DNA of 64,000 nt from Escherichia coli. GTDB lineage: Bacteria > Pseudomonadota > Gammaproteobacteria > Enterobacterales > Enterobacteriaceae. The position numbers and the translations under genes are program-made. Shown in pieces: positions 2,516 to 27,030 of this stretch; the stretch's first letter is position 1, and each line of letters begins with the position of its first letter. The stretch lies in assembly GCF_013122565.1 (NCBI RefSeq), contig NZ_CP053258.1. One strand, written 5' to 3'. Under the pieces are notes generated by a model. The model ran no database searches. It was not told the DNA's origin and worked only from the letters and a program-made list of their open reading frames with translations.

Positions 2516-4735
2516 CTAAGCGGTAACGGTTTCCTCTTCCTCTTCGTCCATCATTTTCAAATAATGTTTTTCATCACCAGTCATACGAAAAATGGTTTTT
2601 AGTTGCTCCATATATTTCTCTGGAGATATATCTCCCATGTCTGTGATATTAACTGCATCTGAATGGGAACCTCTATTAATGTATCTATAAAATGCTCTAA
2701 AATCATTATTCTTATCATCGCTAGCAAGTTTATTTAACTCTGTCTGTAATGCATCCGTTCTATGAACAAATGCGAAGTAGTATTCCAGTATATTTCTCAT
2801 GATGTTAGGTATTATAACTTTATTTACCCTTCCATCCTTCGCATCTTTTAATACTTGCCATAGGGACTGGTATTCATTCTGAATGCTCTTTTTCTCTATT
2901 TCTGTAATTATGCTATATTCATTTTTTGTTACTCGTCCAAGATAATAATCACGCTTGAATGTTCTATCTTCTTTGCTTCTAGGAGCTAATTTGATAAGTT
3001 CATGAAAGAAATAAAGGTTATGTGTGAGTATTAATGTTTTCTTTACTGCTTTGTTATTGTTGATTATTTCATGGTGAATTATTGAAGCAATATCGTACAC
3101 ATAATTTTGAGAGAGGCTGGATATTGGATCATCAATAACGATAAATACATCTCGCATATCCGTATCATTCTTATCTGTCTTACCTTTACAGCATTCCAGA
3201 AAGTAGAGAAAGGTAATTAAAGTTTTTTCACCCTCGCTAAGAGATCTGTATACATCTTTATCTGTTGTGTTTTCAGAACGTGATATAATATATTTATCAT
3301 TGCTCTCAGTGTGTTTTTTTATGCTAAAACCATAAATTCCTAATAATTTTAGACGTTGATTTATAGAATCTATGGTTGCATCAATGTTAGATATTTGATC
3401 GCGTAGCTCTTTGATCTTTTTGCTATTGTTATCTCCTTGTTCTTTTATGGTATTTAATTCAAGTTGATATTGTTCATAAATGATTTTATAGTCATTCTCA
3501 TATTTTGAGAAAGCTTCAAACTCAGCGTTGCATAATTCTCTTATTGCTCCCCATATTTTGTAACGTATAGACTTTTCACTATCCTTAAATTGTTTGACTT
3601 TAATATTTATTTCTTTAATTCTATTGTTGTACTCTGCTATATTATCAACTACCTTTGCTTCAAGGTCGCTATTGGATTCCAAAATAATAGATATAGATGG
3701 GTTATTGATTTTATCTAACATCAATTTTAAGTTTTTGTTTGCTATTTCCTCTAGTAACGCTATATGAGATGATGTTATATCTTTTTCTTTTGAGGTGATT
3801 AATTCACAAGATGAAATCTCTTGTTTTATTTTTCTTAAATTATCTATGGTAGCGGATTCATAAGACGATCTGATAATGCGTATTTGGTCAACTTTCTTGG
3901 AGTAGCTATCATCAAAGATAGATTCAATTGCTTCTAAAAATTTGTCTTTAATAGTGTCTTCTTGGCAGAATGGGCAACATGTGCCATTTAAATATAATTC
4001 CTTCCCTTTTTTCACCCAGTCAAGGTTTTGAAGTTGTTTAATTGTTTCTGACAAATAGCTATTACTTGAGTCTATAATCGGAGTGGATAAAGATTCTTTA
4101 TCTTTTTCTGAAATGATATATTTTTCTAAAGGTGTAATTGATGCAGTGAATTTATCTTTGTTCTTTAAAAGAATACTATATTCTTGAGCAAGTGACTCGA
4201 TGTTAACGTCAGTGGTTTGAGGGGCTTTTTTAACTTGCTCATAAAATGATCTCTTGCTTCCTAACTGACCTTTCATCAAGTTCTTTAAGTCAGATGATCT
4301 AAAAGGTTCTGCTTTATTCCATATTAAATCAATATATTCATTTTCTTTATTGTTTTTATCTTTAATTAAACGCTCAATAACGTTTTTTTTATCTTTGTAT
4401 TTTGTAAGTAGGTCTTGTCTTATAGCTTCTTTTTCCAACAATTCTTTTTCAATGTCAGCATTTTCCTTACTTAAAGTGAATACTCCTTTTTGCTCTTTTG
4501 CATTATAAAAATTATCCTCAACAAACTTAGTATTATAAACCAATAGGCGAAAAGTATCTATGAAAGGACATTCGCATTCTTTGTAGTCCGTGTTATTTGG
4601 ATTATAGAAATAATTAGATATGGTTGATTTTCCACAACCGTTGTGACCATAAAGTATATTAATTTTTTTTGAGAGATTAAGAGTCGTGAAGCTATCTTTC
4701 TTATAGCTGGTTATATTCTTTAATTTAAGTTCCAT
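2516..4735 (-). CDS. Candidate antiphage/abortive-infection protein: split ABC/SMC-type ATPase with coiled-coil insert, CxxC motif and C-terminal HEPN-like domain (PrrC/RloC-like architecture, inferred)
   Basis: 739-aa ORF with ATG at 4733..4735 and GAGG-type RBS upstream. Walker A GHNGCGKST at residues 30-38; K/E-rich heptad-like region about 85-495 with CCPFC at 253-257; signature-like LSEGEK at 499-504; Walker B/D-loop VFIVIDDPISSLS at 530-542; H-loop LILTHN at 568-573; Rx6H (R684..H691) in the C-terminal ~150 aa. Much more AT-rich than the flanking phage genes. Sits at the P2 old/tin position. Confidence 0.8.
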   Translation of the reverse strand: MELKLKNITSYKKDSFTTLNLSKKINILYGHNGCGKSTISNYFYNPNNTDYKECECPFIDTFRLLVYNTKFVEDNFYNAKEQKGVFTLSKENADIEKELLEKEAIRQDLLTKYKDKKNVIERLIKDKNNKENEYIDLIWNKAEPFRSSDLKNLMKGQLGSKRSFYEQVKKAPQTTDVNIESLAQEYSILLKNKDKFTASITPLEKYIISEKDKESLSTPIIDSSNSYLSETIKQLQNLDWVKKGKELYLNGTCCPFCQEDTIKDKFLEAIESIFDDSYSKKVDQIRIIRSSYESATIDNLRKIKQEISSCELITSKEKDITSSHIALLEEIANKNLKLMLDKINNPSISIILESNSDLEAKVVDNIAEYNNRIKEINIKVKQFKDSEKSIRYKIWGAIRELCNAEFEAFSKYENDYKIIYEQYQLELNTIKEQGDNNSKKIKELRDQISNIDATIDSINQRLKLLGIYGFSIKKHTESNDKYIISRSENTTDKDVYRSLSEGEKTLITFLYFLECCKGKTDKNDTDMRDVFIVIDDPISSLSQNYVYDIASIIHHEIINNNKAVKKTLILTHNLYFFHELIKLAPRSKEDRTFKRDYYLGRVTKNEYSIITEIEKKSIQNEYQSLWQVLKDAKDGRVNKVIIPNIMRNILEYYFAFVHRTDALQTELNKLASDDKNNDFRAFYRYINRGSHSDAVNITDMGDISPEKYMEQLKTIFRMTGDEKHYLKMMDEEEEETVTA

Positions 4736-5253: not shown

Positions 5254-6288
5254 TCAGCCGTTGTCAGTGTCCAGTGAGTAGTTTTTAAAGCGGATGACCT
5301 CCTGACCGAGCCAGCCGTTTATCTCGCGGATCCTGTCCTGTAACGGGATAAGCTCATTGCGGACAAAGACCTTTGCCACTTTCTCAATATCTCCCAGTGA
5401 CCCGACGTTCTCCGGCTTGCCGCCCATCAACTGAAAGGGGATACGGTGCGCGTCCAGCAGGTCAGCGGCGCTGGCTTTTTTGATATTAAAAAAATCGTCC
5501 TTCGTTGCCACTTCACTGAGCGGGATAATTTTAATGCCGTCAGCTTTCCCCTGCGGGGCATAGAGAAACAGATTTTTAAAGTTGTTGCGGCCTTTCGACT
5601 TAACCATGTTTTCGCGAAGCATTTCGATATCGTTGCGATCCTGCACGGCATCGGTGACGTACATGATGTATCCGGCATGAGCGCCGTTTTCGTAATACTT
5701 GCGGCGGAACAGCGTGGCCGACTCATTCAGCCAGGCAGAGTTAAGGGCGCTGAGATATTCCGGCAGGCCGTACAGCTCCTGATTAATATCAGGCTCCAGC
5801 AGATGAAACACGGAGCCGGGCGCGAAAGGTGTCGGCTCGTTGAAGGACGGCACCCACCAGTAAACATCCTCCTCCACGCCACGGCGGGTATATTTTGCCG
5901 GTGAGGTTTCCAGTCTGATGATCTTACCGGTGGTGCTGTAACGCTTTTCCAGAAACGCATTACCGAACACCAGAAAATCCAGCACAAAGCGGCTGAAATC
6001 CTGTTGCGAAAGCCACGGATGCGGGATAAATGTCGAGGCCAGAATATTGCGTTTGACGTAAATCGGGGAGCTGTGATGCACGGCAGCACGCAGGCTTTTT
6101 GCCAGACCGGTAAAGCTGACCGGCGGCTCATACCATCTGCTGTTACTGATGCACTCGACGTAATCCAGAATGTCACGGCGGTCGAGTACCGGCACCGGTT
6201 CGCCAAAGGTGAATGCCTCCATTTTCGGGGCGCTGGCGGTGATTGTTTTTGCCGCAGGTTGCGGTGTTTTCCCTTTTTTCTTGCTCAT
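5254..6288 (-). CDS. Q: Portal protein
   Basis: 344 aa, identical in length to P2 gpQ; leftward-transcribed next to the terminase gene and adjacent to cos. Confidence 0.9.
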   Translation of the reverse strand: MSKKKGKTPQPAAKTITASAPKMEAFTFGEPVPVLDRRDILDYVECISNSRWYEPPVSFTGLAKSLRAAVHHSSPIYVKRNILASTFIPHPWLSQQDFSRFVLDFLVFGNAFLEKRYSTTGKIIRLETSPAKYTRRGVEEDVYWWVPSFNEPTPFAPGSVFHLLEPDINQELYGLPEYLSALNSAWLNESATLFRRKYYENGAHAGYIMYVTDAVQDRNDIEMLRENMVKSKGRNNFKNLFLYAPQGKADGIKIIPLSEVATKDDFFNIKKASAADLLDAHRIPFQLMGGKPENVGSLGDIEKVAKVFVRNELIPLQDRIREINGWLGQEVIRFKNYSLDTDNG

Positions 6289-14500: not shown

Positions 14501-15136
14501 ATGAACACTCTCGCAAATATCCAGGAACTCGCGCGCGCACTGCGCAATATGATTCGCACCGGCCTTGTCGTCGAAACCGACCTTAACGCCGGTCGCTGCC
14601 GAGTGCAGACCGGCGGCATGTGCACTGACTGGCTTCAGTGGCTGACTCATCGCGCCGGGCGTTCGCGCACATGGTGGGCACCTTCCGTGGGGGAACAGGT
14701 GCTGATTCTGGCCGTGGGCGGTGAACTTGACACGGCGTTTGTTCTGCCGGGGATTTATTCCGGCGATAACCCCGCGCCGTCTGCGTCGGCGGATGCCCTG
14801 CATATCCGTTTCCCTGACGGGGCGGTGATTGAGTATGAACCCGAAACCAGTGCACTCACGGTAAGCGGAATTAAAACGGTCAGCGTGACGGCTTCTGATT
14901 CTGTTACTGCCACGGTGCCGGTGGTCATGGTGAAAGCGTCAACCCGCATCACCCTGGACACACCGGAGGTGGTCTGCACCAACAGGCTGATTACCGGCAC
15001 GCTGGAAGTGCAGAAGGGCGGGACGATGCGCGGCAACATTGAACACACCGGCGGTGAACTCTCATCAAACGGTAAGGTACTGCATACCCACAAACACCCC
15101 GGCGACAGCGGCGGCACAACCGGGAGTCCTTTATGA
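14501..15136 (+). CDS. V: Baseplate spike/central hub protein
   Basis: 211 aa, same length as P2 gpV; first gene of the V W J I H G operon. Confidence 0.85.
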   Translation: MNTLANIQELARALRNMIRTGLVVETDLNAGRCRVQTGGMCTDWLQWLTHRAGRSRTWWAPSVGEQVLILAVGGELDTAFVLPGIYSGDNPAPSASADALHIRFPDGAVIEYEPETSALTVSGIKTVSVTASDSVTATVPVVMVKASTRITLDTPEVVCTNRLITGTLEVQKGGTMRGNIEHTGGELSSNGKVLHTHKHPGDSGGTTGSPL

Positions 15137-15480
15137 CAGCTCGTTATCTCGGAATGAATCGCAGTAATGGCCTGACTGTCACTGACCTTGAGCATATCAG
15201 CCAGAGTATCGGCGATATCCTGCGTACACCGGTCGGCTCACGGGTGATGCGTCGTGATTACGGCTCGTTGCTGGCATCAATGATTGACCAGCCGCAGACC
15301 CCGGCGCTTGAGTTGCAGATTAAGGTCGCCTGTTACATGGCGGTGCTGAAATGGGAACCCCGCGTCACCCTGTCATCCGTCACCACGGCGCGCAGTTTTG
15401 ACGGGCGAATGACGGTCACGTTAACCGGCCAGCACAACGACACCGGCCAGCCACTTTCGTTAACCATCCCTGTGAGTTGA
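15133..15480 (+). CDS. W: Baseplate wedge protein (gp25-like)
   Basis: 115 aa, same as P2 gpW; start overlaps the V stop. Confidence 0.85.
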   Translation: MTARYLGMNRSNGLTVTDLEHISQSIGDILRTPVGSRVMRRDYGSLLASMIDQPQTPALELQIKVACYMAVLKWEPRVTLSSVTTARSFDGRMTVTLTGQHNDTGQPLSLTIPVS

Positions 15481-15484
15481 AACC

Positions 15485-16393
15485 ATGCCGATTATCGACC
15501 TGAACCAGCTACCCGCACCGGATGTGGTCGAGGAGCTGGACTTTGAAACCATTCTCGCCGAACGCAAGGCGACACTGATTTCCCTTTACCCGGAAGACCA
15601 GCAGGAGGCGGTCGCCCGTACCCTGACACTGGAATCTGAGCCTCTCGTCAAACTGCTGGAGGAAAATGCTTATCGTGAGCTTATCTGGCGTCAGCGTGTG
15701 AATGAGGCCGCACGGGCGGTGATGCTGGCTTGTGCCGCCGGTAATGACCTTGATGTGATTGGTGCCAATTACAACACCACGCGCCTGATTATCACCCCGG
15801 CAGATGATTCGACTATCCCGCCGACACCGGCAGTGATGGAGTCTGACACCGATTATCGTCTGCGTATTCAGCAGGCGTTTGAGGGCTTAAGCGTCGCCGG
15901 GTCGGTGGGAGCCTATCAGTATCATGGTCGCAGTGCTGACGGGCGTGTCGCGGATATTTCTGTCACCAGTCCGTCTCCGGCCTGCGTCACCATCTCTGTG
16001 CTGTCACGTGAAAATAACGGTGTTGCATCCGAAGACCTGCTGGCCGTGGTGCGTAACGCCCTTAATGGCGAGGACGTCAGGCCGGTGGCCGACCGCGTGA
16101 CCGTGCAGTCTGCCGCCATCGTTGAATACCAGATAAACGCCACGCTGTATCTTTACCCTGGTCCCGAAAGCGAACCCATTCGCGCTGCCGCCGTGAAAAA
16201 ACTGGAAGCGTATATCACGGCACAGCACCGGCTGGGGCGCGACATCCGTCTGTCTGCCATTTATGCCGCTTTGCATGTGGAAGGCGTGCAGCGTGTCGAA
16301 CTGGCTGCACCGCTGGCCGACATCGTGCTCAACAATACGCAGGCGTCTTTCTGTACCGAATACCGCGTCGTGACCGGAGGCTCGGATGAGTGA
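15485..16393 (+). CDS. J: Baseplate wedge protein
   Basis: 302 aa, same as P2 gpJ. Confidence 0.85.
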   Translation: MPIIDLNQLPAPDVVEELDFETILAERKATLISLYPEDQQEAVARTLTLESEPLVKLLEENAYRELIWRQRVNEAARAVMLACAAGNDLDVIGANYNTTRLIITPADDSTIPPTPAVMESDTDYRLRIQQAFEGLSVAGSVGAYQYHGRSADGRVADISVTSPSPACVTISVLSRENNGVASEDLLAVVRNALNGEDVRPVADRVTVQSAAIVEYQINATLYLYPGPESEPIRAAAVKKLEAYITAQHRLGRDIRLSAIYAALHVEGVQRVELAAPLADIVLNNTQASFCTEYRVVTGGSDE

Positions 16394-16997
16394 TTCGCGA
16401 CTGCTGCCGACCGGCTCATCACCGCTTGAAGTCGCCGCCGCAAAAGCCTGTGCGGAAATTGAAAAAACGCCGGTCAGTATTCGTGAGCTGTGGAACCCGG
16501 ATACCTGTCCGGCAAATCTGCTGCCGTGGCTGGCGTGGTCATTTTCGGTTGACCGCTGGGATGATAAGTGGCCGGAAGCGACAAAACGCGCTGTTATCCG
16601 CGATGCGTATTTCATTCACTGCCATAAGGGCACTATAGGCGCAATCCGGCGTGTGGTGGAGCCGCTCGGCTATCTGATTGAGGTAAGGGAGTGGTGGCAG
16701 CTCAACGAGGAGCCGGGGACGTTCCGTATCGTTGTTGGTGTGCTTGAGCAGGGTATTACCGAGGAAATGTATCAGGAGCTGGAGCGCCTCGTTGCTGATG
16801 CAAAACCGGCAAGCCGCCATCTGACGGGACTGGCTATCAGCTTAAGTACAACCGGCAACATTTTTGCCGGTGCGGGATGCTATCACGGCGACGCCCTGAC
16901 GGTTTATCCCTACACCCCGGAGGCCATTATTGTCGGAGGGGATTATTTCCCGGCCTCGGCCATTCATTTAATTGATAACCTGAGAGTAAACGCATGA
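16386..16997 (+). CDS. I: Baseplate protein
   Basis: 203-aa ORF in the gpI position (P2 gpI is 176 aa, so the true start may be internal). Confidence 0.75.
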   Translation: MSDSRLLPTGSSPLEVAAAKACAEIEKTPVSIRELWNPDTCPANLLPWLAWSFSVDRWDDKWPEATKRAVIRDAYFIHCHKGTIGAIRRVVEPLGYLIEVREWWQLNEEPGTFRIVVGVLEQGITEEMYQELERLVADAKPASRHLTGLAISLSTTGNIFAGAGCYHGDALTVYPYTPEAIIVGGDYFPASAIHLIDNLRVNA

Positions 16998-18331
16998 CAG
17001 TGAAATACTACGCCATTCTGACTAATCAGGGCGCAGCACGGCTGGCTAACGCGACGATGCTCGGCAGTAAGCTGAATCTGACGCAAATGGCCGTTGGTGA
17101 TGCGAATGGTGTCTTGCCGACACCAGACCCGGCACAGACAAAACTGATTAACCAGAAACGCATCGCGCCGCTGAATCTTCTGAGTGTTGACCCGAACAAC
17201 CAGAGCCAGATTATTGCGGAGCAAATCATCCCTGAGAACGAGGGCGGATTCTGGATCCGTGAGATTGGGCTTTATGATGATGAAGGCGTACTCATTGCGG
17301 TGGCGAACTGCCCGGAAACGTACAAACCGCAGTTGCAGGAAGGCAGTGGTCGTACCCAGACTATCCGCATGATTCTGGTTGTCACGAATACCGAAGCTAT
17401 CACGCTGAAAATCGACCCGTCGGTGGTACTGGCGACCCGTAAATACGTGGATGATGAAGTCCTGGAATTAAGGCTGTATGTGGATGACCAGATGAGCAAA
17501 CACATTGCCGCACAGGACCCTCATACCCAGTATGCACAGAAACATAATCCGACATTTACCGGAGAACCAAAAGCGCCGACGCCTGCCGCAGGAAATAACA
17601 CCACGCGGATTGCGACCACTGAGTTTGTTCAGGCCGCTATTACCGCTCTGATTAACGGCGCGCCAGCCACGCTGGACACACTGAAAGAAATTGCCGCAGC
17701 CATTAACAATGACCCGAAATTCAGTACCACCATTAACAATGCGCTGTCAGGTAAGCAGCCACTGGATGAGACGCTGACGCATTTGAGCGGAAAGGATGTT
17801 GCCGGTCTTCTCGCATACCTTGGTTTGGGAGAAGGTTCGGCATTACCCGTTGGTGTGCCTGTTCCGTGGCCTTCAGCCACACCGCCTACTGGCTGGCTGA
17901 AATGCAACGGTGCGGCTTTTTCTGCTGAAGAATACCCGGAACTGGCAAAGGTTTATCCGACAAATAAATTGCCTGATTTACGCGGTGAATTTATTCGTGG
18001 CTGGGATGACGGGCGTGGAGTGGATAGCGGTCGTACTTTATTAACGAATCAAGAGCATGCAGTAATTTCTCATAATCATGGAATACCTACAAAAGTGGGG
18101 TCAGTTACTAATATCCCGTATGGAATAGAACAGGTTATATCTGATGAAACCATTTTTTCATCAGCAAAAACAGTTGGTGTGGATTACTGGTCTAACAGTG
18201 AAAGAGTTTTTACTTATACAACTGGTGGAAGAAATGGTGCTGAATCAGTGAGTTCACCTGATGCCTCCTCTTTAATTAAAGAAACCAGACCACGGAACCT
18301 GGCATTTGCGTATATCGTGAGGGCTGCATAA
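16994..18331 (+). CDS. H: Tail fibre protein: constant N-terminal part plus currently expressed variable C-terminal part
   Basis: 445 aa in the gpH position. A gix-like crossover site lies inside the gene at 17808..17833, so residues after about 277 belong to the invertible segment. Confidence 0.85.
   Translation: MTVKYYAILTNQGAARLANATMLGSKLNLTQMAVGDANGVLPTPDPAQTKLINQKRIAPLNLLSVDPNNQSQIIAEQIIPENEGGFWIREIGLYDDEGVLIAVANCPETYKPQLQEGSGRTQTIRMILVVTNTEAITLKIDPSVVLATRKYVDDEVLELRLYVDDQMSKHIAAQDPHTQYAQKHNPTFTGEPKAPTPAAGNNTTRIATTEFVQAAITALINGAPATLDTLKEIAAAINNDPKFSTTINNALSGKQPLDETLTHLSGKDVAGLLAYLGLGEGSALPVGVPVPWPSATPPTGWLKCNGAAFSAEEYPELAKVYPTNKLPDLRGEFIRGWDDGRGVDSGRTLLTNQEHAVISHNHGIPTKVGSVTNIPYGIEQVISDETIFSSAKTVGVDYWSNSERVFTYTTGGRNGAESVSSPDASSLIKETRPRNLAFAYIVRAA
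17808..17833. other. gix/hix-like invertase crossover site (left), inside H
   Basis: TTCTCGCATACC TT GGTTTGGGAGAA: 12-2-12 layout with the same half-site style as hixL from memory, and an inverted match to the right site. Confidence 0.6.
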
Positions 18332-18933
18332 TGGATTACGCCGTATTAAATAACGAGTTTATCGCCACCCAGGCAGGAAATATTACTGTTTATAACTATG
18401 ATGGTGAAACGCGTGAATATATTTCTACATCAACTGAATATCTCGCTGTCGGCGTCGGTATTCCGGCATGTTCTTGTTTGGATGCACCAGGTACACATAA
18501 AGCTGGTTATGCAATCTGTCGCTCTGTAGATTTAAATTCATGGGAATATGTGCCAGACCATCGCGGTGAAATCGTCTATAGCACCGAAACAGGAGAATCG
18601 AAAGAAATCACAGCTCCGGGTGATTATCCTGAAAATACAACCACTATCGCCCCGTTAACGCCATACGATGAATGGAATGGTGAGAAATGGGTGACAGATA
18701 CTGAGGCACAGCATAGTGCCGCAGTAGACGCGGCAGAAGCACAGCGCCAGTCGCTGATTGATGCTGCAATGGCTTCCATCAGTCTGATTCAACTGAAATT
18801 ACGGGCCGGGCGGAAGCTGACGCAGCCAGAAAACACCCGACTTAACGCCGTGCTGGATTACATTGACGCGGTGACGGCAACAGATACCAGCACCGCACCG
18901 GATGTCATCTGGCCTGAACTGCCGGAGGCGTAG
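18331..18933 (+). CDS. G: Tail fibre assembly chaperone (expressed orientation)
   Basis: 200 aa, gpG position; C-terminal motif TSTAPDVIWPELPE typical of tail fibre assembly proteins. Confidence 0.8.
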   Translation: MDYAVLNNEFIATQAGNITVYNYDGETREYISTSTEYLAVGVGIPACSCLDAPGTHKAGYAICRSVDLNSWEYVPDHRGEIVYSTETGESKEITAPGDYPENTTTIAPLTPYDEWNGEKWVTDTEAQHSAAVDAAEAQRQSLIDAAMASISLIQLKLRAGRKLTQPENTRLNAVLDYIDAVTATDTSTAPDVIWPELPEA

Positions 18934-19345
18934 GCCATTCAATATCTGGAGCACTGGAGGAATCAACCAGTTCCAGTGCGTCCAGATAATCTAGCCATAA
19001 ATTATATTGCGCCAGTTCCTCACCTTTCAGACGACCAATCGCCGCTTTACCAGGCCATTGCTTACTGTTTATGTATTCGTTGACCTGATTAATCAATTGC
19101 TGCTTTTCCAATTCGGCTGCGGCAATTTGTTCCTCATGAGTTGGCGGTGGAATATCAATCCATGCAGGCATTCCGTCGATGACACCTCTGTATTTTCCTT
19201 CTGGTGCTTCCTTCATAAATTCGGCGGCAACAGTGTCGTCAATTTCGATTCCATCATCGGGCCATTCGCCGGATTCCTGATAAGCGATTTTAAGCTCCAC
19301 AGGGAAAAACGCATTTTTATCGGCACTGAAAATATATTTCTGCAT
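18905..19345 (-). CDS. Alternative tail fibre assembly chaperone (G'), silent in this orientation
   Basis: 146 aa, convergent with G and overlapping its 3' end; C-terminal motif SSAPDIEWPTPP; lies inside the invertible segment. Confidence 0.75.
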   Translation of the reverse strand: MQKYIFSADKNAFFPVELKIAYQESGEWPDDGIEIDDTVAAEFMKEAPEGKYRGVIDGMPAWIDIPPPTHEEQIAAAELEKQQLINQVNEYINSKQWPGKAAIGRLKGEELAQYNLWLDYLDALELVDSSSAPDIEWPTPPAVQAR

Positions 19346-19347
19346 TT

Positions 19348-19746
19348 CTACCGTCCTATCGAAATATAACTGAATCTGTATTGCTGTGAGATATCACTGG
19401 TTGCCACACGCCACGCTGAATTACTGATATGTTCAAAATTTACAGACAAAACCTGCGGGGCAGGAATCGACGGGTCTGACTGAACGGCATCAGACATAAC
19501 ACTGACTGAAACCATCGGCTGATTAGGGAATGGTATAGGGAAGTGTCCACTGATAAAGCGGGTCGTGTTTCCTGAAAAAGTGCCAAACTGAACAATATAT
19601 CCACCTGGTAGCCTGAACCATCCCGAACCAGAAGCGAATGCTCCCATATCCGGTATCTGATTATCTCCTGTGCCCACATCCCTTTTCGCCGCTTCTCCCA
19701 AACCAACGTTTATGAAAATGCAGAGATAACGGGCAACTGGCATCAT
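19348..19746 (-). CDS. Alternative tail fibre C-terminal cassette (H'), expressed only after inversion by fusion to the constant part of H
   Basis: The minus-strand frame encodes GLGEAAKRDVGTGDNQ..., which is in frame with the GLGE of H across the shared 14-bp crossover sequence; the functional part is about 19348..19706. Confidence 0.7.
   Translation of the reverse strand: MMPVARYLCIFINVGLGEAAKRDVGTGDNQIPDMGAFASGSGWFRLPGGYIVQFGTFSGNTTRFISGHFPIPFPNQPMVSVSVMSDAVQSDPSIPAPQVLSVNFEHISNSAWRVATSDISQQYRFSYISIGR
19693..19718. other. gix/hix-like invertase crossover site (right), about 50 bp upstream of the invertase gene
   Basis: TTCTCCCAAACC AA CGTTTATGAAAA; its reverse complement shares TTGGTTTGGGAGAA with the left site. 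The sites bound an invertible segment of about 1.9 kb (17820..19706). Confidence 0.6.
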
Positions 19747-19767
19747 CTCCGGTTTTTATTCAGGGGG

Positions 19768-20367
19768 ATGCTCATGCTTATTGGCTATGTACGCGTGTCA
19801 ACAAATGACCAGAACACGGAATTGCAGCGTAACGCGCTGGAGTGCGCAGGATGCGAGCGGATTTTTGAGGATAAAATCAGCGGCACGAAGTCCGACCGAC
19901 CGGGACTGAAAAAACTGCTCAGAACATTATCAGCAGGTGACACTCTGGTAGTCTGGAAGCTGGACCGGCTGGGGCGTAGTATGCGGCATCTGGTCATTCT
20001 GGTTGAGGAGCTGCGCGAACGCGGCGTTAATTTTCGCAGCCTGACAGATGCTATTGATACCAGCACGCCGATGGGGCGTTTTTTCTTTCATGTGATGGGT
20101 GCCCTGGCTGAAATGGAGCGAGAACTCATTGTCGAGCGGACACGCGCCGGACTGGAAGCGGCCAGAGCCAAAGGGCGTATTGGTGGCAGACGTCCGAAGC
20201 TCACCGCGAGTGAGTGGGAACAGGCAGGACGGTTGCTGGCTGCGGGTGAATCACGTCAACGCGTGGCGCTGATTTTTGATATTGGCCTGTCCACGCTCTA
20301 TAAAAAATTCCCCTCATCAGCGGCAAAGAATAAATTGTGTCATCCCTTAGCCAACCGGGACAAATAG
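19768..20367 (+). CDS. Serine DNA invertase (Hin/Gin/Cin/Pin family)
   Basis: 199 aa; N-terminal catalytic motif GYVRVSTNDQ with the active-site serine; C-terminal helix-turn-helix; immediately next to the invertible tail-fibre segment. Confidence 0.85.
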   Translation: MLMLIGYVRVSTNDQNTELQRNALECAGCERIFEDKISGTKSDRPGLKKLLRTLSAGDTLVVWKLDRLGRSMRHLVILVEELRERGVNFRSLTDAIDTSTPMGRFFFHVMGALAEMERELIVERTRAGLEAARAKGRIGGRRPKLTASEWEQAGRLLAAGESRQRVALIFDIGLSTLYKKFPSSAAKNKLCHPLANRDK

Positions 20368-20426
20368 CCTGACATCTCCGGCACAACTGAAAATATCACT
20401 CACCCATTAACCACGGAGTTAAACGG

Positions 20427-21617
20427 ATGAGTGACTATCATCACGGCGTGCAGGTGCTGGAGATTAACGACGGCACCCGCGTCATTTCCACCGTATCCAC
20501 TGCCATTGTTGGCATGGTCTGCACGGCCAGCGATGCGGATGCGGAAACCTTCCCCCTCAATAAACCGGTGCTGATTACCAATGTGCAGAGCGCAATTGCA
20601 AAGGCCGGTAAAAAAGGCACGCTGGCGGCATCGTTGCAGGCCATCGCCGACCAGTCAAAACCGGTCACCGTTGTCGTGCGTGTGGAAGATGGCACCGGTG
20701 ACGACGAGGAAACGAAACTCGCGCAGACCGTTTCCAATATCATCGGCACCACCGACGAAAACGGTCAGTACACCGGACTGAAAGCCCTGCTGGCGGCGGA
20801 GTCGGTAACCGGTGTTAAACCGCGCATTCTCGGTGTGCCGGGACTGGACACCAAAGAGGTGGCTGTTGCACTGGCATCAGTCTGTCAGAAGCTGCGCGCT
20901 TTCGGGTATATCAGCGCATGGGGCTGTAAAACCATTTCCGAGGTGAAAGCCTACCGCCAGAATTTCAGCCAGCGTGAGCTGATGGTCATCTGGCCGGATT
21001 TCCTCGCATGGGATACGGTCACCAGTACCACCGCCACCGCGTATGCCACCGCCCGTGCGCTGGGTCTGCGCGCTAAAATCGACCAGGAGCAGGGCTGGCA
21101 TAAAACGCTGTCCAACGTTGGGGTGAACGGTGTTACCGGCATCAGCGCCTCTGTATTCTGGGATTTGCAGGAGTCCGGCACCGATGCTGACCTGCTTAAC
21201 GAGTCAGGCGTCACAACGCTGATTCGCCGTGACGGTTTCCGCTTCTGGGGTAACCGTACCTGCTCTGATGACCCGCTGTTCCTCTTTGAAAACTACACCC
21301 GCACCGCGCAGGTGCTGGCCGACACGATGGCTGAGGCGCACATGTGGGCGGTGGACAAGCCCATCACCGCAACGCTGATTCGCGACATCGTTGACGGCAT
21401 CAATGCCAAATTCCGTGAGCTGAAAACAAACGGCTATATCGTGGATGCGACCTGCTGGTTCAGCGAAGAATCCAACGATGCGGAAACCCTCAAGGCCGGA
21501 AAACTGTATATCGACTACGACTATACCCCGGTGCCTCCTCTCGAAAACCTGACCCTGCGCCAGCGTATTACCGATAAATACCTGGCAAATCTGGTCACTT
21601 CGGTTAACAGCAATTAA
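20427..21617 (+). CDS. FI: Tail sheath protein
   Basis: 396 aa, same as P2 gpFI. Confidence 0.9.
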   Translation: MSDYHHGVQVLEINDGTRVISTVSTAIVGMVCTASDADAETFPLNKPVLITNVQSAIAKAGKKGTLAASLQAIADQSKPVTVVVRVEDGTGDDEETKLAQTVSNIIGTTDENGQYTGLKALLAAESVTGVKPRILGVPGLDTKEVAVALASVCQKLRAFGYISAWGCKTISEVKAYRQNFSQRELMVIWPDFLAWDTVTSTTATAYATARALGLRAKIDQEQGWHKTLSNVGVNGVTGISASVFWDLQESGTDADLLNESGVTTLIRRDGFRFWGNRTCSDDPLFLFENYTRTAQVLADTMAEAHMWAVDKPITATLIRDIVDGINAKFRELKTNGYIVDATCWFSEESNDAETLKAGKLYIDYDYTPVPPLENLTLRQRITDKYLANLVTSVNSN

Positions 21618-21629
21618 GGAGCCTGACCG

Positions 21630-22148
21630 ATGGCAATGCCGCGCAAACTCAAGTTAATGAACGTCTTTCTGAACGGCTACAGCTATCAGGGCGTCGCGAA
21701 GTCCGTCACGCTACCAAAACTGACCCGTAAGCTCGAAAACTATCGCGGTGCGGGGATGAACGGCAGCGCACCGGTAGACCTCGGCCTTGATGACGATGCG
21801 CTGTCAATGGAGTGGTCGCTCGGTGGCTTCCCGGATTCGGTTATCTGGGAGCTTTACGCCGCAACCGGTGTGGATGCCGTACCGATTCGTTTTGCAGGTT
21901 CTTACCAGCGCGACGATACCGGCGAAACGGTGGCCGTCGAGGTGGTCATGCGTGGACGTCAGAAAGAAATCGACACCGGCGAGGGCAAACAGGGAGAAGA
22001 CACCGAGTCGAAAATCTCCGTGGTCTGCACCTATTTCCGGCTGACGATGGACGGTAAGGAGCTGGTCGAAATCGACACCATCAACATGATTGAGAAGGTG
22101 AACGGCGTCGACCGGCTGGAGCAACACCGCCGCAATATCGGCCTGTGA
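21630..22148 (+). CDS. FII: Tail tube protein
   Basis: 172 aa, same as P2 gpFII. Confidence 0.9.
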   Translation: MAMPRKLKLMNVFLNGYSYQGVAKSVTLPKLTRKLENYRGAGMNGSAPVDLGLDDDALSMEWSLGGFPDSVIWELYAATGVDAVPIRFAGSYQRDDTGETVAVEVVMRGRQKEIDTGEGKQGEDTESKISVVCTYFRLTMDGKELVEIDTINMIEKVNGVDRLEQHRRNIGL

Positions 22149-22204
22149 TTTTCATCCGGTCAGCCTGGCTGACCGGTTAACCCCGATTCAGAAGTGAGAA
22201 AACC

Positions 22205-22480
22205 ATGAACAAAGAAAACGTCATTACCCTGGACAATCCGGTCAAACGTGGTGAGCAGGTTATCGAACAGGTCACGCTGATGAAACCCAATGCCGGGACG
22301 CTGCGCGGTGTCAGTCTGGCTGCGGTCGCAAACTCCGAAGTCGATGCACTGATTAAAGTGCTGCCGCGCATGACGGCACCGATGCTGACCGAGCAGGAGG
22401 TCGCCGCGCTGGAACTGCCTGACCTTGTGGCGCTGGCCGGTAAGGTGGTCGGTTTTTTGTCGCCGAACTCGGTGCAGTGA
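22205..22480 (+). CDS. E: Tail assembly chaperone E
   Basis: 91 aa, same as P2 gpE; sits just before the tape measure gene. Confidence 0.85.
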   Translation: MNKENVITLDNPVKRGEQVIEQVTLMKPNAGTLRGVSLAAVANSEVDALIKVLPRMTAPMLTEQEVAALELPDLVALAGKVVGFLSPNSVQ

Positions 22481-22632
22481 CGTTTCCGAAAAATCTGTCG
22501 GTCGATGACCTGATGGCGGATGTGGCAGTGATATTTCACTGGCCGCCATCAGAACTGTATCCCATGAGCCTGACCGAACTCATCACATGGCGCGAAAAGG
22601 CGCTCCGGCGAAGCGGAAACACGAATGAGTAA
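22205..22632 (+). CDS. E+E': Tail assembly chaperone E+E', made by programmed -1 frameshift at the slippery heptamer T_TTT_TTG (22453..22459)
   Basis: The heptamer lies 7 codons before the E stop. The -1 frame then runs 57 codons to TAA at 22630..22632, overlapping the T start; the extension ends ...LTELITWREKALRRSGNTNE. Predicted fusion of about 142 aa, as in P2. Confidence 0.7.
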
Positions 22633-25072
22633 CAATGTAAAATTACAGGTATTGCTCAGGGCTGTTGACCAGGCATCCCGCCCGTTTAAATCCATCCGCA
22701 CAGCGAGCAAATCGCTGTCGGGGGATATCCGGGAAACACAAAAATCACTGCGCGAGCTGAACGGTCAGGCATCCCGTATTGAGGGATTTCGCAAGACAAG
22801 TGCACAGCTCGCCGTGACTGGTCATGCACTTGAAAAGGCTCGGCAGGAAGCCGAAGCCCTTGCCACACAGTTTAAAAACACCGAACGTCCGACCCGTGCT
22901 CAGGCGAAAGTGCTGGAATCCGCAAAGCGTGCGGCGGAGGACTTACAGGCGAAATATAACCGCCTGACGGATTCCGTTAAACGCCAGCAGCGGGAACTGG
23001 CCGCTGTGGGAATTAATACCCGCAATCTTGCACATGATGAGCAGGGACTGAAAAACCGTATCGGTGAAACCACTGCACAGCTTAACCGTCAGCGTGATGC
23101 GCTGGCGCGTGTCAGTGCGCAACAGGCAAAACTTAACGCAGTAAAACAGCGTTATCAGGCCGGAAAGGAACTGGCCGGAAATATGGCCTCAGTGGGCGCT
23201 GCCGGTGTGGGGATTGCGGCGGCGGGAACGATGGCCGGAGTTAAGCTGCTGATGCCCGGTTATGAGTTTGCGCAGAAAAACTCAGAATTACAGGCTGTGC
23301 TCGGAGTGGCAAAAGACTCCACCGAAATGGCCGCACTACGCAAACAGGCGCGTCAGCTTGGCGACAATACCGCCGCCTCGGCAGATGATGCAGCCGGTGC
23401 GCAGATTATTATTGCGAAAGCCGGTGGGGATGTTGATGCCATTCAGGCGGCAACGCCGGTCACGCTGAATATGGCGCTGGCGAACCGTCGCACGATGGAA
23501 GAAAACGCTGCCCTGCTGATGGGGATGAAATCCGCCTTTCAGCTTTCAAACGATAAGGTCGCTCATATCGGGGATGTTCTCTCCATGACGATGAACAAAA
23601 CCGCCGCCGATTTTGACGGTATGAGCGATGCGCTGACCTATGCTGCACCTGTGGCAAAAAATGCCGGTGTCAGCATTGAAGAAACCGCCGCAATGGTCGG
23701 AGCGCTGCATGATGCAAAAATCACAGGCTCAATGGCGGGGACGGGAAGCCGTGCCGTGTTAAGTCGCCTGCAGGCACCGACGGGAAAAGCATGGGATGCA
23801 CTCAAAGAGCTTGGCGTGAAAACCTCAGACAGTAAGGGAAACACCCGACCAGTATTTACCATTCTGAAAGAAATGCAGGCCAGTTTTGAGAAAAACCGGC
23901 TCGGTACTGCCCAGCAGGCTGAATACATGAAAACCATTTTCGGGGAGGAAGCCAGCTCAGCCGCCGCCGTGCTGATGACTGCCGCCTCAACCGGAAAGCT
24001 GGACAAACTGACCGCTGCGTTTAAAGCCTCAGACGGGAAGACCGCCGAGCTGGTAAATATCATGCAGGACAACCTCGGCGGTGACTTTAAGGAGTTTCAG
24101 TCCGCTTATGAGGCGGTGGGGACTGACCTGTTTGACCAGCAGGAAGGCGCACTGCGTAAGCTCACGCAGACGGCCACAAAGTATGTGTTAAAACTCGACG
24201 GCTGGATCCAGAAAAACAAATCACTGGCGTCAACCATCGGCATCATTGTCGGTGGTGCACTGGCACTGACTGGTGTCATCGGTGCCATTGGCCTCGTAGC
24301 CTGGCCGGTTATCACCGGCATCAATGCCATCATCGCGGCAGCAGGCGCAATGGGGGCAATCTTCACGACGGTTGGCAGTGCTGTTATGACGGCCATCGGG
24401 GCGATTAGCTGGCCGGTTGTGGCCGTGGTGGCCGCAATTGTCGCCGGGGCGTTGCTTATCCGTAAATACTGGGAGCCTGTCAGCGCATTCTTTGGCGGTG
24501 TGGTTGAAGGGCTGAAAGCGGCATTTGCGCCAGTGGGGGAACTGTTCACGCCACTTAAGCCGGTGTTTGACTGGCTGGGTGAAAAGTTACAGGCCGCGTG
24601 GCAGTGGTTTAAAAACCTGATTGCCCCGGTTAAAGCCACTCAGGACACCCTGAACAGTTGCCGTGACACGGGGGTCATGTTCGGGCAGGCACTGGCTGAC
24701 GCGCTGATGCTGCCGCTTAATGCGTTCAACAAACTGCGCAGCGGAATTGACTGGGTACTGGAAAAACTCGGTGTTATCAACAAAGAGTCAGACACACTTG
24801 ACCAGACCGCCGCCAGAACTCAAGCCGCCACGTATGGCAGCGGTGGTTATATTCCGGCGACCAGCTCTTATGCAGGCTATCAGGCTTATCAGCCGGTCAC
24901 GGCACCGGCTGGCCGCTCTTATGTGGACCAGAGTAAAAACGAATATCACATCAGCCTGACGGGTGGTACTGCGCCGGGGACACAGCTTGACCGCCAGTTA
25001 CAGGATGCGCTCGAAAAATACGAGCGGGATAAACGTGCGCGCGCCCGTGCCAGCATGATGCATGACGGTTAA
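22625..25072 (+). CDS. T: Tail tape measure protein
   Basis: 815 aa, same as P2 gpT; alanine/glycine-rich with hydrophobic central segments. Confidence 0.9.
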   Translation: MSNNVKLQVLLRAVDQASRPFKSIRTASKSLSGDIRETQKSLRELNGQASRIEGFRKTSAQLAVTGHALEKARQEAEALATQFKNTERPTRAQAKVLESAKRAAEDLQAKYNRLTDSVKRQQRELAAVGINTRNLAHDEQGLKNRIGETTAQLNRQRDALARVSAQQAKLNAVKQRYQAGKELAGNMASVGAAGVGIAAAGTMAGVKLLMPGYEFAQKNSELQAVLGVAKDSTEMAALRKQARQLGDNTAASADDAAGAQIIIAKAGGDVDAIQAATPVTLNMALANRRTMEENAALLMGMKSAFQLSNDKVAHIGDVLSMTMNKTAADFDGMSDALTYAAPVAKNAGVSIEETAAMVGALHDAKITGSMAGTGSRAVLSRLQAPTGKAWDALKELGVKTSDSKGNTRPVFTILKEMQASFEKNRLGTAQQAEYMKTIFGEEASSAAAVLMTAASTGKLDKLTAAFKASDGKTAELVNIMQDNLGGDFKEFQSAYEAVGTDLFDQQEGALRKLTQTATKYVLKLDGWIQKNKSLASTIGIIVGGALALTGVIGAIGLVAWPVITGINAIIAAAGAMGAIFTTVGSAVMTAIGAISWPVVAVVAAIVAGALLIRKYWEPVSAFFGGVVEGLKAAFAPVGELFTPLKPVFDWLGEKLQAAWQWFKNLIAPVKATQDTLNSCRDTGVMFGQALADALMLPLNAFNKLRSGIDWVLEKLGVINKESDTLDQTAARTQAATYGSGGYIPATSSYAGYQAYQPVTAPAGRSYVDQSKNEYHISLTGGTAPGTQLDRQLQDALEKYERDKRARARASMMHDG

Positions 25073-25086
25073 GGAGGTGACGAAAA

Positions 25087-25566
25087 ATGATGCTCGCGTT
25101 AGGTATGTTTGTTTTTATGCGCCAGACGCTGCCACACCAGACCATGCAGCGTGAATCAGATTATCGCTGGCCGTCAAATTCCCGTATCGGTAAACGGGAT
25201 GCCTTTCAGTTTCTCGGTGTTGGCGAGGAAAACATCACGCTTGCCGGTGTGCTTTATCCCGAACTGACCGGCGGAAAGCTGACGATGACCACGCTCAGGC
25301 TGATGGCAGAGGAAGGTCGGGCGTGGCCGTTGCTGGATGGCACTGGCATGATTTACGGCATGTATGTCATCAGCAGGGTGAGTGAAACAGGGAGTATTTT
25401 CTTTGCAGACGGCACACCCCGGAAAATTGATTTTACGCTGTCGCTCACCCGCGTTGATGAATCACTGGCCGCACTTTATGGCGATATCGGTAAACAGGCG
25501 GAATCGCTCATCGGTAAGGCTGGCAGTATGGCGACTAAATTCACGGGTATGACGGGGGCGGGATAA
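25087..25566 (+). CDS. U: Tail protein U
   Basis: 159 aa, same as P2 gpU. Confidence 0.85.
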   Translation: MMLALGMFVFMRQTLPHQTMQRESDYRWPSNSRIGKRDAFQFLGVGEENITLAGVLYPELTGGKLTMTTLRLMAEEGRAWPLLDGTGMIYGMYVISRVSETGSIFFADGTPRKIDFTLSLTRVDESLAALYGDIGKQAESLIGKAGSMATKFTGMTGAG

Positions 25567-26729
25567 TGCTGGATGCGCTGACATTTGATGCAGGCAGTAC
25601 ACTGACGCCGGATTACATGCTGATGCTCGACAGCAGGGATATTACCGGCAATATCAGCGACCGTCTGATGAGCATGACCCTGACGGATAACCGGGGCTTT
25701 GAGGCTGACCAGCTTGATATTGAACTGAACGACGCCGACGGGCAGGTAGGGCTACCGGTTCGTGGCGCTGTCCTGACGGTGTATATCGGCTGGAAAGGTT
25801 TTGCCCTGGTATGCAAAGGGAAATTTACCGTTGATGAGGTTGAACACCGGGGCGCACCGGATGTGGTCACCATCCGCGCCCGGAGTGCAGATTTTCGCGG
25901 GACGCTCAATTCCCGCCGGGAAGGCTCCTGGCATGACACCACGCTCGGTGCGATTGTTGAGGCGATAGCCACCCGTAACAGGCTGGAAGCCAGTGTCGCT
26001 CCGTCACTGGCCGGAATTAAAATCCCGCACATCGACCAGTCGCAGGAGTCCGATGTGAAATTCCTGACCCGTCTTGCTGAACGCAACGGCGGCGAGGTGT
26101 CGGTAAAAATGGGAAAACTGCTGTTTCTCAAAGCGGGGCAGGGGGTGACGGCCAGTGGTAAAAAAATCCCGCAGATCACCATCACCCGCAGCGACGGTGA
26201 CCGTCATCATTTTGCGATTGCTGACCGTGGAGCCTATACCGGCGTAACGGCAAAGTGGTTACACACCAAAGACCCGAAACCGCAAAAGCAGAAGGTAAAA
26301 CTGAAACGCAAAAAGAAAGAAAAACACCTGCGCGCACTGGAGCACCCGAAAGCGAAACCAGTCAGGCAGAAGAAAGCGCCAAAAGTACCGGAAGCGCGCG
26401 AAGGTGAATACATGGCCGGTGAGGCTGACAACGTTTTTGCCCTGACCACGGTATATGCCACGAAAGCGCAGGCCATGCGCGCCGCTCAGGCGAAGTGGGA
26501 CAAACTGCAACGGGGTGTGGCGGAGTTCTCCATCAGCCTGGCTACTGGTCGGGCAGATATTTACACGGAAACGCCGGTCAAAGTGTCAGGCTTTAAGCGC
26601 GTCATAGACGAGCAGGACTGGACAATCACTAAGGTGACACATTTTCTGAATAATAGCGGCTTCACGACGTCCTTAGAGCTTGAGGTAAGGCTTTCTGATG
26701 TGGAGTACGAAACCGAAGATGATGAGTGA
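25566..26729 (+). CDS. D: Tail protein D (late control gene D)
   Basis: 387 aa, same as P2 gpD; lysine-rich internal segment. Confidence 0.85.
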   Translation: MLDALTFDAGSTLTPDYMLMLDSRDITGNISDRLMSMTLTDNRGFEADQLDIELNDADGQVGLPVRGAVLTVYIGWKGFALVCKGKFTVDEVEHRGAPDVVTIRARSADFRGTLNSRREGSWHDTTLGAIVEAIATRNRLEASVAPSLAGIKIPHIDQSQESDVKFLTRLAERNGGEVSVKMGKLLFLKAGQGVTASGKKIPQITITRSDGDRHHFAIADRGAYTGVTAKWLHTKDPKPQKQKVKLKRKKKEKHLRALEHPKAKPVRQKKAPKVPEAREGEYMAGEADNVFALTTVYATKAQAMRAAQAKWDKLQRGVAEFSISLATGRADIYTETPVKVSGFKRVIDEQDWTITKVTHFLNNSGFTTSLELEVRLSDVEYETEDDE

Positions 26730-26811
26730 TGTGTTTTATTTTATCTGTTTGTTTTATAAGGATAAATTAACTAAAATGGCAACATCAACAAAACCGGAAG
26801 AGGTGCTCGCG

Positions 26812-27030
26812 ATGTTTCATTGTCCTTTATGCCAGCATGCCGCACATGCGCGTACAAGTCGCTATATCACTGACACGACAAAAGAGCGTTATCACCAGTG
26901 TCAGAACGTGAATTGCAGCGCCACGTTCATCACTTATGAGTCTGTACAGCGATACATTGTGAAGCCGGGAGAAGTCCACGCCGTGAGGCCGCACCCGTTG
27001 CCGTCAGGGCAGCAAATTATGTGGATGTAA
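26812..27030 (+). CDS. ogr: Ogr zinc-finger late-gene transcriptional activator
   Basis: Internal start MFHCPLCQHAAHAR gives 72 aa as for P2 Ogr; CxxC...CxxxxC zinc-finger cysteines; last phage gene before att. Confidence 0.85.
   Translation: MFHCPLCQHAAHARTSRYITDTTKERYHQCQNVNCSATFITYESVQRYIVKPGEVHAVRPHPLPSGQQIMWM

Follow-up and report, generated by a model that had tools for sequence, protein, structure and literature searches.

What is a serine recombinase gene doing between the tail-fibre genes and the tail-sheath gene FI of a P2-type prophage? The question is raised by positions 19768–20426 of a 64,000-nucleotide stretch of Escherichia coli DNA (contig NZ_CP053258.1), the whole of which is referred to here as the window. 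This interval runs exactly from the start of an invertase open reading frame (ORF) to the start of FI, because FI begins at 20427. In P2, the order past gene G is a terminator, fun(Z) on the minus strand, the activator-binding site of the late promoter pF, the transcription start and FI. An earlier reading made from the sequence alone (the sequence-only reading) had placed a serine invertase at the Z/fun position and had taken this hotspot to be devoted to host-range variation. The position is borne out: in P2, the interval from G to FI contains fun(Z), read from the opposite strand, and the gene in the window likewise lies between tail-fibre and assembly genes and the pF of FI on a P2-type backbone, which is the place that defines the Z/fun hotspot. 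The analysis described here indicates, with a probability of roughly 0.9, that the gene product is a DNA invertase of the Fis/enhancer-dependent Din family (Gin, Cin, Pin, Hin and Fin) and that it switches the receptor-binding end of the prophage tail fibre. The proposed devotion of the hotspot to host-range variation is supported as well, an invertase of the Hin/Gin family in this setting appearing dedicated to tail-fibre switching.

The gene and its downstream neighbour are as follows.

19774–20367, plus strand: DNA invertase gene (longest ORF from 19768), identified by its ORF, its Pfam domains, its alignment to Gin and RefSeq.
20427–21617, plus strand: tail-sheath gene FI, with Pfam Phage_sheath_1 and related domains, collinear with P2 FI.

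The longest ORF at the site (19768–20367, plus strand) encodes 199 amino acids (aa). It is full length and retains its catalytic serine, and the pseudogene lacking this residue for which the sequence-only reading had allowed was not encountered. The second ATG, at 19774, is the likely start instead of 19768, because RefSeq annotates 19774–20367 as a 197-aa 'recombinase family protein' (NZ_OZ197100.1, isolate 23S01245-7, 100% identical to the window), 197 aa is also the annotated length of the pro483 and MET_P1_103_31 homologues, the Shine–Dalgarno sequence GGGGG at 19763–19767 is properly spaced for 19774 but abuts 19768, and the resulting N-terminus agrees with the MLIGYVRVST of Gin, Cin and PinE. 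The observation of an invertase in the G-to-FI interval is confirmed, with refinements: the intact ORF is there, but it is likely 197 aa long, and it shares the interval (18934–20426) with a second assembly gene (tfa'), a silent tail-fibre cassette (Hv'), the pF promoter and the right crossover site.

The family to which the protein belongs was assigned by domain content, alignment and diagnostic residues. It contains the Pfam domains Resolvase (PF00239, 8e-53, residues 5–137 of the 199-aa form) and HTH_7 (PF02796, 1e-12), an architecture that is common to resolvases and that would also suit a Tn3/γδ-type resolvase or transposon recombinase lodged in the hotspot by chance and unconnected to the tail-fibre repeats. 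However, the alignment with Mu Gin (structures 3uj3 and 4m6f) is gap-free over residues 1–184 and scores 319 bits (E 6e-95), far above the 117 bits (E 7e-33) obtained with γδ resolvase. Identity across the first 180 aa is approximately 80% to Gin and Cin and 87% to e14 PinE and Fels-2 Fin, and the catalytic S9 (Hin S10, Gin S9) and R42 (Hin R43) are kept. Furthermore, Hin K47, R48 and K51 of helix B and Q151, R154 and L155 of helix-1 of the DNA-binding domain are specific to Fis/enhancer-dependent invertases (McLean et al., 2013), and their counterparts here are K46, K47 and R50 and Q150, R153 and L154, respectively. The neighbours are tail genes, with no transposase gene alongside, and gix-like sites bound an invertible segment in a Mu-type layout. 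A resolvase or transposon identity is effectively refuted by the Gin and γδ scores, the site matches and the alignment with gixR, and its probability is negligible.

The crossover sites connect the invertase with the tail fibre. The best inverted repeat in 16900–20500 is a pair of 27 nucleotides (nt), 17808–17834 with 19692–19718, which covers two sites of 26 base pairs (bp).

17808–17833: left 26-bp crossover site, inside the tail-fibre gene H, TTCTCGCATACC-TT-GGTTTGGGAGAA; identified by the inverted repeat, by pattern match and by a block boundary in the genome of ECONIH5.
19693–19718: right 26-bp crossover site, TTCTCCCAAACC-AA-CGTTTATGAAAA; identified by the inverted repeat, by pattern match and by alignment with Mu gixR.

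The Din-type half-site pattern TTCTCNNAAACCNNGGTTTNNGAGAA, allowing up to three mismatches, matches exactly these two places in the 64 kb, whereas 0.00 matches were expected from shuffled sequences, and the central TT and AA dinucleotides of the left and right sites are compatible. Mu gixR (TTCCTGTAAACCGAGGTTTTGGATAA) lines up with the right site in every column, and the Mu record sets the boundary of the G segment at the same central dinucleotide. The e14 crossover site (TTCTCCCAAACCAACGTTTATGAAAA) is identical in sequence to the right site. No third crossover site is present in the window; with two sites only, a shufflon-like multi-inversion, as in one P2-like prophage of enteropathogenic E. 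coli (EPEC), was rejected.

These sites delimit an invertible segment of 1.9 kb (17822–19704) that holds two alternative C-termini of H together with their assembly chaperones.

16994–17821, plus strand: Hc, the constant N-terminal part of H, up to the crossover dinucleotide; Pfam Phage_tail_fib at residues 1–150.
17822–18331, plus strand: Hv, the currently expressed variable C-terminus of H; Pfam Collar at residues 287–334; related to e14 StfE.
18331–18933, plus strand: tail-fibre assembly protein of 200 aa, the equivalent of G, TfaE-like; Pfam Caudo_TAP; paired with Hv.
18905–19345, minus strand: alternative assembly protein tfa' of 146 aa, silent as oriented; Pfam Caudo_TAP.
19348–19704 (ORF to 19746, 132 aa), minus strand: Hv', the silent alternative C-terminus of H, with a gp53-like C domain; Pfam Gp53-like_C.

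The order from I to FI is H and the 200-aa tfa on the plus strand, the 146-aa tfa' and the gp53-like Hv' ORF on the minus strand, and the invertase, a layout equal to S-U / U'-S' / gin of phage Mu. As now oriented, H comprises 445 aa (16994–18331, plus strand). When 17822–19704 was flipped in silico, codons 1–276 of H were fused in frame to the minus-strand cassette; the product is an H' of 394 aa (...LAYLGLGEAAKRDVGTGDNQIP...), after which comes the chaperone of 146 aa. The Hv' ORF (19348–19746, minus strand) is labelled in RefSeq as a free-standing 132-aa 'gp53-like domain-containing protein'. Some 14 codons at its start fall beyond the limit of the invertible segment, and Hv' is therefore best read as the unexpressed half of a switch and not as an independent gene.

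The two cassettes have different affinities. The expressed one (17822–18933) is homologous to e14 stfE/tfaE (e14 locus L012, 3518–4656). Hv and StfE show 55% identity and are nearly identical over approximately 75 residues from the crossover site on, and the 200-aa assembly protein is 90% identical to TfaE. The product of tfa' is 56% identical to e14 TfaP, and the Hv' cassette is unrelated to e14 StfP. An e14-type cassette beside an unrelated one is in line with the well known exchange of cassettes among Din segments.

If the segment is inverted in nature, both orientations should be found among related prophages. Junctions were searched for in 5,426 complete E. coli genomes, counting those with at least 80% coverage of the query. 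The flipped junction (402 nt of Hc joined to 405 nt of reverse-complemented Hv') is contiguous in at least 38 of them, with up to 100% coverage and 99.4% identity, and the unflipped junction, searched for with an equivalent query, is present in 13. The flipped state is seen in the genome of ECONIH5, where both flanks keep the order of the window (99.6% and 98.8% identity, Hc itself being 99.6% identical and collinear), whereas the block between the sites is inverted, with breakpoints at 17820–17834 and 19692–19709 in window coordinates. The RefSeq order in ECONIH5 is a 394-aa tail protein, a 146-aa chaperone, a 200-aa chaperone and an H fragment on the opposite strand, and then the invertase and FI; the homologue of tfa' is thus downstream of H' there. 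Such a polymorphism across strains is exactly what an active switch would predict, and it falls short of proof for the present strain. Inversion ongoing within clonal cultures has been demonstrated by experiment for two P2-like prophages of EPEC E2348/69 (Goldberg et al., 2014).

A separate arrangement was noted in E. coli bR_120_Kylling (NZ_CP182374.1, 2140639–2145007), where a single invertible segment separates the left arms of two different P2-like prophages, which point towards each other (...I, H, tfa / tfa', H', I, J, W, V...); invertase and FI are both missing between the arms. This pattern fits either an artefact of assembly or a large chromosomal inversion in which crossover sites of the two prophages recombined.

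An invertase of this kind would need a recombinational enhancer, which the sequence-only reading had expected in the 5' part of the gene and had left unplaced. It can now be placed at approximately 19796–19858 by alignment with P1 cin and by synonymous conservation. In the P1 GenBank record, the 'enhancer of Cin-mediated C-segment inversion' is annotated at nt 19–90 of cin, which align to 19792–19863 of the window.

About 19796–19858, in the 5' coding part of the invertase gene: putative recombinational enhancer, with cores TGTCAACAAATGACC (19796–19810) and GCGCAGGATGCGAGC (19844–19858); identified by P1 cin alignment and synonymous conservation.

The invertase genes that were compared (six, then nine) align gap-free over their full length. 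Fis core sites follow the degenerate pattern K-NN-YR-NN-W-NN-YR-NN-M, and both 15-mers match it in all nine genes. Their centres are 48 bp apart and their joint span is 63 bp; the centre of core I lies 97.5 bp, and the centre of the enhancer 121 bp, from the right crossover point. The published Hin enhancer is 65 bp long, with a Fis site at each end, and is located approximately 100 bp from hixL, with which the 63-bp span and the distance of approximately 100 bp agree. The enhancer thus appears to sit within the 5' part of the invertase gene, where Fis would bind. The sequence properties of the Din family are all present, namely the domains and length, the catalytic Ser and Arg, the Fis-activation residues and two inverted 26-bp sites, together with an enhancer of approximately 60–70 bp with a Fis site at each end, the last of these at the level of sequence only.

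Several observations weigh against an active switch, and the first of them concern this enhancer. The degenerate Fis consensus alone matches 5–10 positions per gene and is non-discriminating, and a consensus scan was rejected as stand-alone evidence. Constraint beyond that on the protein was therefore examined, and reliance was placed on position, homology with P1 and synonymous conservation. Synonymous codon identity was defined as the fraction of pairs with identical codons among codon pairs for the same amino acid across the nine invertase genes, and took the following values, which speak for the enhancer.

Core I (codons 8–13): 0.82.
Core II (codons 24–29): 0.69.
Spacer between the cores: 0.41.
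Remainder of the invertase gene: 0.42.

When six-codon windows were ranked, the top 14 of 179 all fell at codons 1–11 or 22–26, on or beside the cores. Core I begins with T and not with the preferred G, and it overlaps the catalytic-Ser codon near the 5' end, where constraint from the protein or from translation could explain part of its conservation. Core II has no such protein- or 5'-end excuse.

The remaining objections concern expression and orientation. A σ70 scan of the plus strand of 18800–20500 revealed no promoter for the invertase, the assembly of the prophage shows one orientation only, and both orientations are seen between strains and not within one clone. The lack of a recognizable promoter and the single orientation in the window would also be expected of a frozen relic, in which the invertase or the sites are inactive and the segment is fixed as Hc-Hv; the left half-site TTCTCGCATACC is moreover non-consensus, the right outer half-site being TTTTCATAAACG. 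However, the ORF is not truncated and none of its catalytic and Fis-contact residues is missing, the sites come as close to the consensus as do those of Mu and e14 aligned with them, which are functional, both orientations are common in near-identical prophages, and the synonymous constraint on the enhancer is still present. A relic of this kind is very improbable.

For a functional switch, the mechanism may be sketched from what has been shown above, namely how the sequence is built, its homology and conservation, and the natural polymorphism in orientation; Fis binding, catalysis and the effect on host range are inferred from homology to Hin and Gin. Invertase dimers would bind the inverted 26-bp sites at 17808–17833 and 19693–19718, and two Fis dimers would bind the enhancer at approximately 19796–19858 within the 5' end of the invertase's own gene. 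The three DNA segments would then join into an invertasome on supercoiled DNA, in which the catalytic Ser 9 would cut at the central TT/AA, one pair of subunits would rotate by 180° and the strands would be religated. The flip of 17822–19704 would convert the state with the 445-aa H (Hc and Hv) and the 200-aa chaperone into that with the 394-aa H' (Hc and Hv') and the 146-aa chaperone. With these two states of H and chaperone, a population of lysogens would therefore release virions of two host ranges.

A different beneficiary has also been considered, namely the lysogen itself, which the invertase might serve either in trans on other Din segments or by making chimeric tail fibres that block adsorption of other phages, as reported for PinQ and e14 StfE2, so that the slot would be one for defence. 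According to a 2025 paper, StfE2 arises when the segment of e14 is flipped and prevents T2 from adsorbing, and PinQ has this effect when it acts in trans on the P segment of e14. The homology of the Hv and Tfa cassette to e14 StfE/TfaE, the further places on the source chromosome that match the query and the related genome with two prophages joined across an invertible segment are all compatible with such a role. However, H is complete and lies in an apparently intact P2-type late operon. As is known for P2, such an operon is silent in lysogens, in contrast to the decayed e14. In addition, the sequence gives no sign of lysogenic expression of H or H'. Service to the lysogen is accordingly judged very unlikely as the function of the gene. 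As a defence system in its own right, the invertase was rejected, a PADLOC scan having returned no match for it.

With a tail-fibre switch as the preferred reading, the way in which it was inserted into the P2 backbone could be traced in the sequences that flank the invertase.

19719–19773, plus strand: invertase leader, with the invariant block TGGCATCAT at 19738–19746 and the Shine–Dalgarno sequence GGGGG at 19763–19767.
20330–20403, plus strand: late promoter pF of the P2 backbone, with the activator site at 20330–20358 and the transcription start at 20401–20403, placed by offset from P2.

The block TGGCAT(C/G)AT at 19738–19746 is invariant upstream of seven Din-family invertase genes (those of this prophage, pro483, Fels-2, Mu, Cartapus, e14 and Chris1). 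An extended −10 element of the invertase promoter is one candidate role for this block; equally, it may be conserved as the ATG that opens the minus-strand cassette ORF. No terminator or structured RNA was found between the invertase and FI (fold z-score 0.32), and there was no Rfam match in 16500–21500 at E up to 1.

The comparison with P2 and its relatives across G to FI that the sequence-only reading had proposed shows that P2 homology resumes only at approximately 20335, and that the layout is common to Fels-2, pro483 and others. At the DNA level, this resumption (TTGTG...TTAGCCAACCGGGACAAATAGCC) lies within the pF activator-binding site, and E. coli genomes with this FI but without the invertase start to match at window position 20335 or 20347. 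Upstream, H shares only 42% identity with P2 H, the N-terminal part being no exception, and the assembly protein is barely related to G; therefore, the whole H-G-Z/fun stretch has been replaced, beyond the Z/fun slot itself. The module (Hv, tfa, tfa', Hv' and invertase) takes the place of the P2 H C-terminus, G and Z/fun and is joined to the backbone at pF.

The stop codon of the invertase (TAG, 20365–20367) lies inside the conserved pF promoter sequence, and the invertase is therefore approximately ten residues longer than Fin, Cin and PinE. The stop and approximately 11 codons before it consist of pF-conserved sequence, including the annotated Ogr/activator-binding site. The overlap is probably a scar of the recombination that brought the module in, but it places a site for the late activator within coding sequence. 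A more speculative and unlikely interpretation is that the invertase is physically wired into pF. If this were true, transcripts of the invertase made in the lysogen could run on into the tail operon or, alternatively, binding of the late activator could block the completion of invertase transcripts and freeze the orientation while virions are being built, which would be a regulatory coupling not known for Din systems.

The other genes of the window place this module in a P2-type prophage, which is followed past ogr by a host peptidase U32 gene.

1–2268: gpA.
5254–6288, minus strand: Q, and P likewise on this strand; genes for head, lysis and tail come after.
14501–18331: V, W, J, I and H.
20427–26729: FI through D.
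26698–27030: ogr.

The old/tin slot, between gpA and Q, had been assigned a candidate defence gene, and this assignment agrees with the present results: 2516–4735 (minus strand) encodes a 739-aa AAA_13 ATPase (Pfam 2e-102) that matches PADLOC PDC-S06 (4e-253) and has a PrrC-like C-terminal region.

As for known systems, the mechanism is textbook and the arrangement is common, annotated and published, and hence already known. The same order of I, H, tfa, tfa' and Hv' (both on the minus strand), invertase and FI is found in Fels-2 (Fin, STM2702), pro483, MET_P1_103_31, 'Escherichia phage P2' of O157:H43 T22, S164 and Cartapus. The invertase is 96.5–98.5% identical to those of pro483, MET_P1_103_31 and S164, and pro483 and MET_P1_103_31 have both the pF junction and the 197-aa length in common with this prophage, whereas in Fels-2 and Cartapus the invertase is shorter (185–188 aa) and the spacer to FI is longer. 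Relative to its P2-like relatives, the present prophage differs only in cassette content (the Hv/tfa pair) and in present orientation. The Fels-2 invertase is the Fin of Kutsukake et al. (2006), which Goldberg et al. (2014) cite. Invertases have been described as frequent in the Z/fun hotspot, with inversion of adjacent genes, in a 2024 preprint; in the paper on P88/pro147 they go unmentioned.

More distant systems show which parts of the module are conserved. The e14 P segment with PinE has an invertase 87% identical to the present one, an identical right site, one cassette in common and an invertase transcribed away from the segment; however, e14 of K-12 is a decayed lambdoid remnant with stfE as a pseudogene, whereas the module here resides in an apparently complete P2-type tail operon. 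Mu Gin and P1 Cin belong to the same mechanism class, with gix/cix-type sites and an enhancer in the 5' coding region (annotated in P1), and the S-U / U'-S' logic of Mu and P1 equals that of H-tfa / tfa'-Hv' here. The segment is 1.9 kb long compared with approximately 3 kb in Mu and 4.2 kb in P1, and the receptor-binding tips differ. P1 cin points towards its segment, with the enhancer approximately 500 bp from cixL, whereas here, as in Mu, the 5' end and the enhancer are approximately 100 bp from the nearest site. Salmonella Hin, which inverts the H segment in flagellar phase variation, presumably shares the Fis/enhancer type of invertasome. The 26-bp sites of Hin likewise have AA/TT at the centre, its enhancer of 65 bp lies approximately 100 bp from one of them, and the Fis-contact and helix-B residues are conserved; however, hin lies inside its own segment and moves a promoter, whereas the invertase here lies outside the segment and the 3' ends of coding sequences are swapped. 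Finally, P2 itself has, at the same position between the tail-fibre genes and pF/FI, the single leftward lysogenic-conversion gene fun(Z), whereas in this prophage a predicted host-range switch has replaced that slot plus H and G.

What the analysis adds is the resolution with which one such switch has been described: the crossover sites to the base, the position of the enhancer with its synonymous-site argument, a corrected start codon, the fusion products, natural evidence of both orientations and the exact pF junction. For the annotation of these prophages, the description means that the RefSeq 'gp53-like domain protein' and the second of the proteins named 'tail fiber assembly protein' belong together as the silent half of a probable switch of host range and are not independent genes. 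The invertase–pF–FI junction is present, at 80% coverage or more, in 580 of the 5,426 complete E. coli genomes, approximately one third of the 1,689 that match the P2-type FI region, and where the Z/fun slot is treated as a hotspot for defence genes, this commonness has to be reckoned with.

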